A stretch of 44,159 nucleotides of DNA. It comes from Chlamydiota bacterium (GTDB lineage Bacteria > Auribacterota > Tritonobacteria > UBA1439). Location: NCBI GenBank assembly GCA_037133055.1, contig JBAXOY010000008.1:1-44159 (forward strand), given 5' to 3'. Positions within the stretch are counted from its first letter, which is position 1, and each line of letters begins with the position of its first letter. The position numbers and the translations under genes were made by a program. Shown here in pieces: positions 21,692 to 24,936 of this stretch. The notes beneath the pieces are model-generated. The model was not told where the DNA came from. It ran no database searches and was given only the letters and a program-made list of their open reading frames with translations.

Positions 21692-22132
21692 GTGAAGATT
21701 TCTACTCGAGTGCGCTATGGGGTCAGGCTTCTCGTAGAACTCGGCCTCCACTCGGGAGACGAGCCGGTTCTTTTACGCGACATCTCCAAGAATCAGGAGA
21801 TTTCAGAAAAATACCTCGGCCAGATCATGATTCCGCTCAAAGCCGCGGGCCTTGTGCGCACGTATCGCGGGGCGCACGGTGGCTACCGTTTGGGCAGGCG
21901 GGCCGCGGACATCACCCTCAAGGAGATTGTGGAGGTGCTCGATGGGGATATGTGTCTCCTCGATTGCGCGCGGGAGCCCGGCTCATGCAGCCGGATCGTC
22001 CACTGTGTCACCAAGAGCGTCTGGCAGGAGCTCGGAAAACGCATTTCCTCGTTCCTCGAATCCATGACGCTCGAGGACCTGATCGCGCAGTGCGGGGACC
22101 GCAGGGAAGTCGCACAGATGTACCAGATATAA
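21692..22132 (+). CDS. Rrf2 family transcriptional regulator (CymR/IscR-like)
   Basis: [25 protein letters not shown]...RGAHGGYRL and ITL.EI...LDG motifs, a Cys cluster, and C-terminal MYQI. Confidence 0.93.
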
Positions 22133-22157
22133 ACGAAGTCAACAGGGAGGATTGCCG

Positions 22158-23456
22158 ATGAGCAGGATCGACTCGAGACTCAGCGCCGAGACACTCGCAC
22201 TTCACGGGGGACAGGAGCCCGACCCGACGACCGGGGCGCGCGCGGTGCCCATCTATCAGACCACCTCGTACCAGTTCCGCGACACCGAGCACGCGGCAAA
22301 CCTGTTCGGTCTCAAGGAATTCGGCAATATCTACACGAGGATCATGAACCCCACGACCGACGTGCTCGAGAAGAGGATCGCCGCGCTCGACGGGGGCGTG
22401 GGCGCGCTCGCCGTGGCGAGCGGGCAGTCCGCGATCACCCTCTCAATCCTCACCCTCGCGCGGGCGGGGGACGAGATCGTCTCCGCCGATAACCTCTACG
22501 GGGGGACCTACACCCTGTTCCACTATACCCTCCCCCGGATGGGAATCACGGTCCGCTTCGTCAAATCCAACGACCTTCGCGCGCTTCGCGCGGCGATCGG
22601 CCCGAAGACGAAGGCGGTCTACGCCGAATCGATCGGGAACCCAAAGCTCGATATCGCCGACCTGGAGGGCATCGCCGCCATCGCGCACGAGAACGGGATC
22701 CCGTTCATCCTCGACAACACCGTTTCCCCTTATCTCCTCAGGCCGTTCGACTTCGGGGTTGACATCACCGTCTATTCCGCCACCAAGTTCATCGGGGGGC
22801 ACGGGACCTCGATCGGCGGTCTCATCGTCGATTCGGGCAAATTCGACTGGACGAACGGGAAATTCCCCCTCGTCTCCGGACCGGAGCCGAGCTATCACGG
22901 CCTCGACTTCGTGGAGGCGCTGAAGCCGCTCGGGAACATCGCCTACATCATCAAGGCGCGCGTCACGCTCCTTCGCGATCTCGGGCCCGCCCTGTCGCCG
23001 TTCAACGCCTTCCTTTTCCTACAGGGCATCGAGACCATCCACCTGAGGATGCCGCGGCATTCCCAGAACGCCCTCGCCGTCGCCGAGCATCTCGAGAAAC
23101 ACCCCGCCGTTGCCTGGCTCCACTATCCGGGCCTCGCGTCGAGCCCGGAAAAGGCGCGCGTCGACAGGTACCTCCCCCGCGGGGCTGGCGCGATCCTCGG
23201 CTTCGGGATCAAGGGGGGGCTCCCGGCGGGGCAAAAATTCATAAACTCGCTCGAACTCGTGTCGCACCTCGCGAACGTCGGCGACGCGAAGACGCTTGCG
23301 ATCCATCCCGCGAGCACGACGCACCAGCAGCTCTCCCCGGAGGAGCAGCGCGCCACCGGGGTGACGCCGGACTTCGTCCGCCTCTCGGTCGGCATCGAGA
23401 ACGCGGACGACATCATCGCGGACATCGACCAGTCATTGAAGAAGGCGACGGCATGA
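22158..23456 (+). CDS. metY: O-acetylhomoserine/O-acetylserine sulfhydrylase (Cys/Met metabolism PLP enzyme)
   Basis: [34 protein letters not shown] (PLP Lys), [23 protein letters not shown] and RLSVGIE motifs. Confidence 0.95.
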
Positions 23457-23494
23457 ACTGCGGCGTCACGACAGCCGCGAGAAAGGGATATACC

Positions 23495-24418
23495 ATGGGC
23501 AGGATATTCGACGATATCACGAAGACGGTGGGCAGGACGCCGCTGGTGAGGATCAACCGGATCTCGAAAGGGACGGGCGCGGTGGTGCTGGCGAAACTCG
23601 AATCGTTCAACCCGCTCGGGAGCGTGAAGGACCGGATCGGCGTCGCCATGATCGATGCCGCGGAGAAGCAGGGGCTCATCCGGAAGGGCTCGGTCATCGT
23701 CGAGCCGACGAGCGGCAACACGGGGATCGCCCTGGCCTTCGTCTGCGCGGCGCGGGGCTACCGTCTCATCCTCACCATGCCCGACACGATGAGCGTCGAG
23801 CGCCGGCAGCTCCTGAAGATACTGGGCGCGGAGGTGGTGCTGACGGAGGGGGCAAAGGGGATGAAGGGGGCGGTGGCGAAGGCGGAGGAGATCCACACCG
23901 CCACGCCGGGCAGCTTCATGCCGCAGCAGTTCGAAAACCCCGCCAACCCCGAGATACACCGGCGGACCACCGCCGAGGAGATCTGGGCGGACACGGACGG
24001 CGGCGTGGACATCTTCGTCGCGGCGACCGGAACGGGGGGGACCATCACGGGGGTGGGAGGAGTGCTGAAGGCGCGGAAGCCGGGGGTGAAGGTGATCGCG
24101 CTCGAGCCCGCGGACTCGCCCGTGCTGTCGGGGGGCGCGCCCGGCCCGCACAAGATACAGGGCTGGGGGCCGGGGTTCGTGCCCGGCGTGCTCGACCGCG
24201 CCGTGATCGACGAGATAGTGCGCGTCGGCCACGTCGATGCGGGGGCGATGGCCCGCAGGCTCGCCCTCGAGGAGGGGATCCTGACCGGAATCTCTGGCGG
24301 CGGGGCGATGTGGGGGGCGATCGAGGTTGCGAAACGGCCGGAATCGGCCGGGAAGACGATCGTCACGGTCCTCCCCGACACGGGGGAGCGCTACCTCTCC
24401 ACCTGGCTTTTCCAGTGA
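23495..24418 (+). CDS. cysK: Cysteine synthase A
   Basis: [52 protein letters not shown] and [10 protein letters not shown] motifs. Confidence 0.97.
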
Positions 24419-24473
24419 GGGAGATGCACAGGGGCCCGAGCGGATGCCGGAGGTCCGCGCGAGGGAGACAGCC

Positions 24474-24737
24474 ATGAAAGACGCCACAGTCACCGTCAAC
24501 AATCCCCACGGCCTGCACATGAGGGTCGCAGCCGAGGTCGTCAGGAGGTGCAGGGGGTTCCAATCCGCGATCACGCTCTGCAAGGACTGCAAGCGGGCGG
24601 ACGGCTGCTCGATCATCCAGCTCGTCATGCTGGGGGCGGCAAAGGGCTCCGAGCTGAAGATCATCGCCGCGGGGGGGGACGAGTCCGCCGCCGTACGGGA
24701 GCTCTCGTCCTTCTTCAGCGAGGGCGGAGGCATCTAG
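24474..24737 (+). CDS. HPr family phosphocarrier-like protein with C-terminal GGGI tail
   Basis: VNNPHGLHMR (His15 site), DGCSII.L.MLGA.KG (Ser46 site) and A.G.DE..AV motifs. GGAG precedes ATG24474. Confidence 0.88.
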   Translation: MKDATVTVNNPHGLHMRVAAEVVRRCRGFQSAITLCKDCKRADGCSIIQLVMLGAAKGSELKIIAAGGDESAAVRELSSFFSEGGGI

Positions 24738-24741
24738 GCGT

Positions 24742-24936
24742 ATGACAACAAAAGAATCGCTGCGCGCCCACGGCACTCCCGATCCGGCGCTCCGCATCGT
24801 CGGCAACGCGGTGCAAAGCCTTCAGTTCGGGACCGTGACGATCAAGGTCCACGACACCAGGATCGTGCAGATCGAGGTGACGGAAAAGATACGTTTCGGC
24901 GAAAGACGGGACTACGAGAAGGGAGGTGGCATCTAA
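24742..24936 (+). CDS. YezD-like small protein (DUF2292) with C-terminal GGGI tail
   Basis: SLQFGTVTIKVHDTRIVQIEVTEKIRF matches the DUF2292 pattern (L.FG.V.I.VH...V.QIE..EK.R). Sulfur operon context. Confidence 0.85.
   Translation: MTTKESLRAHGTPDPALRIVGNAVQSLQFGTVTIKVHDTRIVQIEVTEKIRFGERRDYEKGGGI

Follow-up and report, generated by a model that had tools for sequence, protein, structure and literature searches.

Why should three proteins of different families, encoded around a single cysteine synthase gene, all end in isoleucine? The question is raised by a 44,159-nucleotide stretch of DNA (positions 1 to 44,159, forward strand, of contig JBAXOY010000008.1 in assembly GCA_037133055.1; the whole stretch is hereafter the window), which comes from an organism listed as Chlamydiota bacterium and placed by GTDB in the Auribacterota. 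Here, an Rrf2-family regulator, a paralog of the phosphocarrier HPr and a small YezD-like protein of the DUF2292 family are encoded with metY and cysK in an apparent operon (21692-24936). The answer favoured here, to which we attach a moderate probability, is that this is a sulfur-assimilation module in which the only CysK of the genome would act as a docking platform, gated by O-acetylserine (OAS), for the three co-encoded proteins with isoleucine tails.

The five genes lie on the forward strand and three of their products carry the endings AQMYQI, FFSEGGGI and DYEKGGGI, as stated in the sequence-only reading that first drew attention to the locus. The Rrf2-family regulator, of 146 amino acids, comes first (21692-22132, GTG start) and ends in EVAQMYQI. 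It is followed by metY, which encodes O-acetylhomoserine sulfhydrylase (homocysteine synthase; 22158-23456, or from a TTG at 22152, the ATG at 22158 being preceded by GGGAGG) and is identified by PF01053 (440 bits) and TIGR01326 (662.9 bits against a cut-off of 495.1), and by cysK, which encodes O-acetylserine sulfhydrylase A (23495-24418; TIGR01139, 451.9 bits against a cut-off of 350.95) with the C-terminus STWLFQ. The HPr paralog, here also called sulfur-operon HPr (24474-24737, 87 amino acids), and the DUF2292 protein (24742-24936, 64 amino acids) come next and end in FFSEGGGI and DYEKGGGI, respectively. The successive intergenic gaps measure 25, 38, 55 and 4 bases, a sequence scan found no terminator-like sites between these genes, and the G+C content of the operon (0.62-0.66) does not contrast with that of its flanks. 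The open reading frame (ORF) calls used throughout are mechanical.

Endings of the form G-x-G-I are rare in this genome. Only five of the 15,049 ORFs of at least 60 amino acids in the six frames of the 2.99-Mb assembly have one; two of the five are the adjacent genes of the HPr paralog and the DUF2292 protein, and the remaining three have no match in Pfam or NCBIfam. The tails of the two adjacent proteins are not due to chance. In a greedy set of non-overlapping ORFs of the window, the only frames that end in isoleucine are the Rrf2 gene, the gene of a DUF3034 protein described below and an unassigned ORF (35217-37751), the HPr and DUF2292 genes being masked in that set by longer antisense frames. 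As the sequence-only reading had pointed out, the two GGGI tails are written in different codons (ggc gga ggc atc for the HPr paralog, gga ggt ggc atc for the DUF2292 protein). Its proposal of selection on the peptide is borne out by homologs, in which the HPr tail is kept down to 36% identity, the terminal isoleucine of the Rrf2 protein is found in 48 of 56 cases and the DUF2292 G-x-G-I in 50 of the best 150 matches examined. An absence of the tails from homologs had been named beforehand as an outcome that would speak against the idea; they were found to be conserved.

The cleft of CysK is described as binding the carboxylate and side chain of a C-terminal isoleucine, as in CysE, CymR and CdiA-CT, in competition with OAS, in two sources (bioRxiv 10.1101/2024.09.19.614015; PMC4961446). 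The proteins of this operon have the features of such clients, namely a conserved C-terminal isoleucine in all three and, in the AlphaFold2 (AF2) models of the HPr paralog and the DUF2292 protein, an unstructured tail. The enzyme itself is of the true CysK type; in addition to its TIGR01139 score above the cut-off, it comes closest among solved structures to CysK enzymes (423-427 bits, with the CysM structure 2bht at 238 bits), and the CysM models give it 297-302 bits, under their cut-offs. In this 92%-complete assembly it is the single gene of the CysK/CysM class to pass the cut-off, out of four TIGR01136 matches. Moreover, all of 29 CysK proteins from such loci share K45 (the pyridoxal phosphate (PLP) lysine), T72-S73-G74-N75-T76, M123, Q145 and F146, and these motifs appear to correspond to the tail-contacting residues of the preprint, the match having been made by motif and not by superposition.

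The usual occupant of this cleft seems to be missing. No cysE lies on the window's contig, in agreement with the sequence-only reading, the four TIGR01172 matches being on contigs C155, C5 and C13. The only serine acetyltransferase of the genome (contig C155, 343 amino acids; EpsC model, 154.1 bits against 150) ends in KKSGK. Since it has no isoleucine tail, the classical CysE–CysK complex cannot form here through such a tail and, judged from the sequence, CysE is not a contestant for CysK in this genome. The operon thus resembles the cysteine synthase complex in its G-x-G-I peptides (GGGI in the HPr paralog and the DUF2292 protein, EYGDGI in CysE of E. coli K-12), but differs from it in that the tail carriers are not acetyltransferases.

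With regard to the HPr paralog, its membership of the HPr family is clear from both PF00381 (84.9 bits against 23) and TIGR01003 (73 bits against 47.9). It had been described from the sequence as a phosphocarrier of the phosphotransferase system (PTS); the family assignment holds, but the protein is a dedicated paralog and not the HPr of the cell. The canonical ptsH lies on contig C37 together with hprK and ptsI, its product ends in SKFGED, and the window gene does not qualify as such. A profile search built on seven paralogs retrieved 84 proteins, in which G-x-G-I closes 48 of the 50 best matches (at least 82 bits) and none of the remaining 34. The two exceptions among the best 50 end in GAVI and in AAG, the latter being a 72-residue fragment. 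Of the remaining 34, one is a truncated paralog and the others look like ordinary HPr. All five close homologs (62-94% identity) end in GGGI. In an alignment of 33 sequences (A4), the most distant of which is 36% identical to the window protein, no variation is seen at G13, H15, R17, A42, S46, L53, G84 and I87, and at least 90% of the sequences have G86; the invariance of H15 and S46 means that both phosphorylation sites are retained.

Next to Ser46, the window protein carries a Cys triad, C36-x2-C39-x5-C45 (CKGCxKADGCS), which may be a metal, iron–sulfur or redox site. Of 48 tail-bearing sequences, 39 have the C-x2-C-x5-C pattern, as does 1 of 35 that do not end in isoleucine, that one being a truncated paralog; a member from the Omnitrophota lacks the triad. 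The AF2 model has the classical HPr fold (beta-alpha-beta-beta-alpha-beta-alpha; predicted local distance difference test score, pLDDT, 91.7), with the last five residues extending past helix 70-82, devoid of secondary structure and of lower confidence. By these sequence marks, the tail-bearing paralog is a discrete and undescribed HPr subfamily. It resembles the HPr paralogs Crh and NPr/PtsO, and HPr-Ser46-P in its action with CcpA, in its HPr fold, in His15, Arg17 and Ser46, and in being a second copy beside ptsH-hprK-ptsI. To our knowledge, neither a G-x-G-I tail nor a Cys triad nor a sulfur-operon home has been described for Crh or NPr/PtsO.

The neighbourhood of this subfamily was surveyed by a metagenome scan that was seeded from the Ser46 region and was blind to the tail and to the neighbours. 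Of the 80 loci that it returned, 73 have the tail, 5 lack it and 2 are cut by a contig end. Within 1.5 kb of the 73 tail-bearing paralogs, cysK was found in 30 cases, metY in 25, an Rrf2 gene in 10 and at least one of the three in 49; cysK lay within 8 kb in 40 cases, and its distance to the paralog was often 3-70 bp. None of the three genes was found within 1.5 kb in the 5 tail-less loci, nor cysK within 8 kb, and none lay within 1.5 kb of 13 canonical HPr genes of relatives. Neighbour genes were detected by tblastn with the window's proteins, which misses divergent homologs, and related genomes are not independent.

The DUF2292 protein belongs to PF10055 (53.4 bits against a gathering cut-off of 22) and falls short of the OscA equivalog model NF033785 (38.7 bits against 85). 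It shares the PF10055 domain with OscA, which NCBIfam calls a 'sulfur starvation response protein', and with YezD, but it differs from tail-less members such as those of Pseudomonas (L073, L079, L082), which end after the core, by 16 further residues that close in GGGI. In the AF2 model, a helix (15-26) and a hairpin (30-48) precede this tail (49-64), which is unstructured and of lower confidence, and a Foldseek comparison of the model with the PDB gave no match at E <= 0.001. A word-indexed search with the protein returned only the query, and an exhaustive search of 1.84 billion representatives, used in its place, found 265 DUF2292 matches. Among the best 150 of these 265, 55 end in isoleucine and 50 of them in G-x-G-I, which is carried by 23 of 117 proteins with a single domain and by 27 of 31 with two domains in tandem. 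Thirteen of the tandem proteins end in Y-G-[D/E]-G-I, and ten of these in YGDGI, identical in all five last residues to CysE of E. coli K-12 according to its genome record.

Glycine-rich ends of this kind could also belong to sulfur-carrier precursors, trimmed by JAB, thiocarboxylated by ThiF or MoeB and delivering sulfur to CysK or CysM in the manner of CysO of Mycobacterium. At L226, the genes of ThiF and a Prok-JAB protein do adjoin a tandem DUF2292 gene, and at L123 an HPr paralog has a ThiF gene nearby. However, neither the HPr nor the DUF2292 model is a beta-grasp fold, tails such as G-D-G-I, G-E-G-I, G-S-G-I and G-A-G-I leave no Gly-Gly after trimming, and the window's operon contains no ThiF or JAB gene. 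This explanation is therefore rejected on fold and tail sequence, and we hold it to be very improbable.

The association of the DUF2292 tail with sulfur genes was examined in 80 genome loci found with a 14-sequence DUF2292 alignment (A2). There, cysK lies within 8 kb of 9 of 15 tail-bearing copies (one through a partial CysK match) and of 7 of 65 tail-less copies (Fisher p = 1.4e-4), counts that overstate the number of independent cases, as the tail-bearing loci are mostly from the Omnitrophota. Thirty-eight of the 80 loci contain a CymR-like Rrf2 gene, the product of which ends in isoleucine in 30 cases. In the window's phylum, where 13 of 61 genomes have DUF2292, all four tail-bearing copies sit in an operon of Rrf2, DUF2292, DUF3034 and metY, and none of the five tail-less copies placed by tblastn has these operon genes within 1.5 kb.

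Several observations weigh against CysK docking as the common purpose of the tails, in addition to the narrow sampling of lineages just mentioned. A different picture came from 301 genomes sampled in the phylum of a Bacillota genome. Of nine tandem DUF2292 genes there that encode G-[D/E]-G-I tails, a single one has cysK at a distance of up to 8 kb, as compared with four of eight tail-less single-domain genes, two of which directly adjoin cysK. Adjacency of DUF2292 and cysK does not, therefore, track the tail across lineages. The sequence-only reading had proposed co-occurrence of the tails with an adjacent cysK as a check, and its outcome is divided, being favourable for HPr, where the 49 of 73 loci with cysK, metY or Rrf2 stand against none of 13 canonical ones, and mixed for DUF2292. 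Furthermore, two genomes of the same genus (G001 and G002, 80% and 96% complete) yielded neither a DUF2292 gene nor the HPr paralog, so that the module is dispensable and patchily distributed, even if it is present in three genomes of the same family. The HPr tail, with its five residues past the last helix, does not reach the length of the CysE and CymR tails investigated so far. In addition, none of the markers cysK, metY and Rrf2 was detected in the 1.5 kb around 24 of the 73 tail-bearing HPr genes; the metagenome contigs are in many cases short (1-3 kb), though some of the marker-less ones are long (L164-L166, L138).

Other sulfur genes stand in for the markers in several such loci. Pfam annotation of eight loci, seven marker-less ones and L123, where a metY-like match is 1.4 kb away, revealed a sulfate ATP-binding cassette (ABC) transporter near the tail-bearing paralog in L181 and L153, an SsuA-like NMT1 binding protein in L140, and two Cys/Met PLP enzymes, DsrE and ThiF in L123. 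In L138 (3250-7014), a nitrogenase-like oxidoreductase (PF00148) and a radical S-adenosylmethionine (radical-SAM) protein stand beside it, reminiscent of the nitrogenase-like enzymes of organic-sulfur salvage; in L164-L166 and L198 no obvious link to sulfur was seen. The tails could also dock another partner, such as MetY, a PLP-dependent enzyme of the CBS-domain PALP type or a sulfur-trafficking protein, with CysK as a mere neighbour in the regulon. In relative G024 (L040), the tail-bearing HPr, with the ending NGSGI, is preceded by a CBS-domain PALP enzyme and a cystathionine enzyme in a locus without CysK, and the partner could thus be another PLP enzyme. The paralog is, moreover, near metY about as often as near cysK (25 against 30 of 73), and the tandem DUF2292 genes of the 301-genome sample neighbour a sulfate ABC transporter, ThiF and JAB, or MnmA, and not cysK. 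Nevertheless, recognition of a C-terminal isoleucine carboxylate is documented in the sources cited for no partner other than CysK, the ten tandem proteins ending in YGDGI match the last five residues of CysE, a proven CysK ligand, and missing adjacency is weak evidence, as cysE and cysK are themselves often not adjacent. A different partner is thus considered quite unlikely.

It can also be asked whether G-x-G-I is a structural or turnover element particular to each family, such as a C-terminal cap, a contact between subunits or a signal for degradation, the likeness to CysE being convergent and without functional meaning. The shortness of the HPr tail and the behaviour of DUF2292 in the 301-genome sample are in line with this, and the DUF3034 protein of the same locus, which would be secreted and could not meet a cytoplasmic CysK, ends in KYEI, so that isoleucine endings here can have other reasons. 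On the other hand, two unrelated folds, HPr and DUF2292, share the tail side by side and a third protein has a CymR-type tail; within HPr, the tail marks exactly the sulfur-operon subfamily, both among the profile matches (48 of 50 against 0 of 34) and by genomic context (49 of 73 against 0 of 13); and tails modelled at lower confidence and without secondary structure fit binding as a peptide elsewhere better than they fit a cap. We see this explanation as unlikely, and docking to CysK is retained as the favoured reading.

A few further C-termini were recorded in these loci. In L040 (5294-6736), the 480-residue enzyme with PALP and CBS domains itself ends in KEDSDGI, two genes before the tail-bearing HPr. 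A CysA-like ATPase with a TOBE domain, encoded directly upstream of a tail-bearing HPr paralog (L181, 4396-5400), ends in CEYEI, and an ABC-transporter ATPase about 1 kb from a tandem DUF2292 gene (L227, 9381-10205) in ESYQI. Among the eight tail-less single-domain DUF2292 proteins from the phylum of a Bacillota genome, five have a C-terminal Cys right after the core (among L233-L238; ...EKVRLC, ...EKLRFC), which could be another kind of active-site ligand; the gene of L238, with a terminal Cys, lies 155 bp from cysK, and that of L237, the product of which ends in Lys, 6 bp from it.

The Rrf2 protein is the part of the arrangement with the closest precedent. It matches PF02082 (129.5 bits) and TIGR00738 (130 bits against a cut-off of 73.3), and the CymR model NF047409 aligns with it end to end (1-146 against 1-139 of 139), with a score of 112.6 bits that stays under the equivalog cut-off of 195. 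On this basis it is classified as a CymR-like member of the Rrf2 superfamily and not as a CymR equivalog. Its ending, QMYQI, is the conserved aromatic-x-Ile tail of the CymR class, and the 48 isoleucine endings among the 56 Rrf2 proteins from DUF2292 or HPr-paralog loci are nearly always [Y/F]-x-I; the genome's only other Rrf2 gene (contig C41) encodes a protein ending in KKHHTN. For S. aureus, a preprint (bioRxiv 10.1101/2024.09.19.614015) reports that a CymR decapeptide, EDLDGYMFYI, binds in the active site of CysK (KD 25 nM), where its isoleucine carboxylate is in contact with Q145, T73, N76 and T77, and that the tail competes with OAS. The likeness to the CymR–CysK pair of B. subtilis and S. 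aureus thus lies in an Rrf2 repressor with an aromatic-x-Ile tail (YMFYI in S. aureus, QMYQI here), and the differences in the score under the CymR cut-off, in an operon shared with cysK and in three cysteines of the iron–sulfur type. These cysteines, C92, C99 and C105, are kept in the window protein and in nearly all of its 56 relatives, at what we take to be the iron–sulfur ligand positions of IscR and NsrR; we know of no Firmicute CymR that has them. The regulator may therefore combine an iron–sulfur cluster with docking to CysK.

A place for its action can be proposed upstream of its own gene, where a consensus scan found a promoter-like site on the forward strand (TTGGTA, 16 nucleotides, TATTAT; 21639-21666) and a repeat finder an overlapping inverted repeat (21645-21654 and 21671-21680), the 10-nucleotide arms of which are 90% complementary. 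Together, they form a candidate operator (21639-21680) for the Rrf2 repressor. At low OAS, CysK would hold the MYQI tail of the Rrf2 dimer and stabilise it on this promoter-overlapping operator, as in CymR-like repression; under a shortage of sulfide, OAS would build up and expel the tails, and the operon would be derepressed. The HPr paralog and the DUF2292 protein, made from the same transcript, would fill the CysK site through their G-x-G-I tails, and would thereby both compete with the repressor and plug the enzyme, a role that falls to CysE elsewhere. Docking of the three tails, their displacement by OAS and the competition between them are deduced from sequence likeness to known CysK ligands. 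A complex prediction for CysK and the HPr paralog gave no answer (both scores 0.00, with the mark at 0.32 and the controls not folded) and carries no weight in either direction.

Phosphorylation of the HPr paralog, which keeps His15 and Ser46, by enzyme I (EI) or HprK could then feed the carbon or energy status of the cell into the partition of CysK among its clients. Genes for EI, HprK, two HPr proteins and three proteins with an EIIA_2 domain (contigs C73, C26 and C84) are present, and no EIIC of family PF02378 was found in the 92%-complete assembly, other EIIC families not having been searched; three EIIA_2 proteins without such an EIIC fit a regulatory PTS, and the PTS of this organism may be purely regulatory. 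A more specific proposal, which we advance tentatively and regard as doubtful in its full form, is that the HPr paralog, present in at least three phyla (Auribacterota, Omnitrophota and Fibrobacterota/Chitinispirillaceae), plugs CysK with its G-x-G-I tail, and that phosphorylation of His15 or Ser46, perhaps together with the redox or metal state of the Cys triad, would determine what share of CysK is available to co-repress the sulfur regulon with the iron–sulfur CymR-like Rrf2 protein, the DUF2292 protein being a second OAS-displaceable plug in place of the missing CysE tail.

The module extends beyond the DUF2292 gene to one last gene, which encodes a DUF3034 protein with a signal-peptide-like N-terminus (about 25057-26076, forward strand, the start at 25057 being read from the ORF; PF11231, 87.6 bits), probably an outer-membrane protein. 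DUF3034 appears as a constant member of the module (window; L038, L039, L040, L041-L053), its orthologs in relatives and in Omnitrophota loci being located between the DUF2292 gene and metY/cysK; its C-terminus is KYEI in the window and close relatives and AQY[AS]F in the Omnitrophota. In relatives G007 and G003, the corresponding operon has the tails YAI, EKGGGI and DGGGI. An Rfam scan of 21000-26500 found no riboswitches, and a match to RsmV inside cysK (22.5 bits against a gathering score of 100) was taken as chance.

The known moonlighting partners of CysK are CysE, CymR, a contact-dependent inhibition (CDI) toxin and, in worms, EGL-9, all of which bind through a C-terminal isoleucine. The toxin, CdiA-CT of uropathogenic E. 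coli 536, which ends in GYGI according to the sequence-only reading, is likewise an unrelated protein that uses a CysE-type C-terminal isoleucine for CysK, but it is passed between cells, unlike the housekeeping proteins co-transcribed with cysK here. Deletion of its isoleucine is reported to abolish CysK binding (PMC4961446). The sequence-only reading had held the whole arrangement to be undescribed. For the Rrf2 protein this does not stand, as insertion of the CymR tail into CysK is already published and the present regulator is a further member of that class, with the iron–sulfur cysteines as its twist; for the other two it appears to, since no paper on an interaction of HPr or DUF2292 with CysK was found by title or abstract in the open-access literature. 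The new part of the arrangement is the HPr paralog with its CysK-type tail.

The presence of three isoleucine-tailed proteins in one operon suggests that CysK controls more than has been known. If the DUF2292 protein is a client of CysK, the large orphan family DUF2292/YezD/OscA would gain a testable function. If the HPr paralog is one, a new branch of HPr would join phosphotransferase signalling to sulfur metabolism, and a direct link at the protein level would run from the carbon or energy status of the cell to sulfur assimilation. CysK would then be a general OAS-gated hub in a number of little-studied phyla without the classical cysteine synthase complex.

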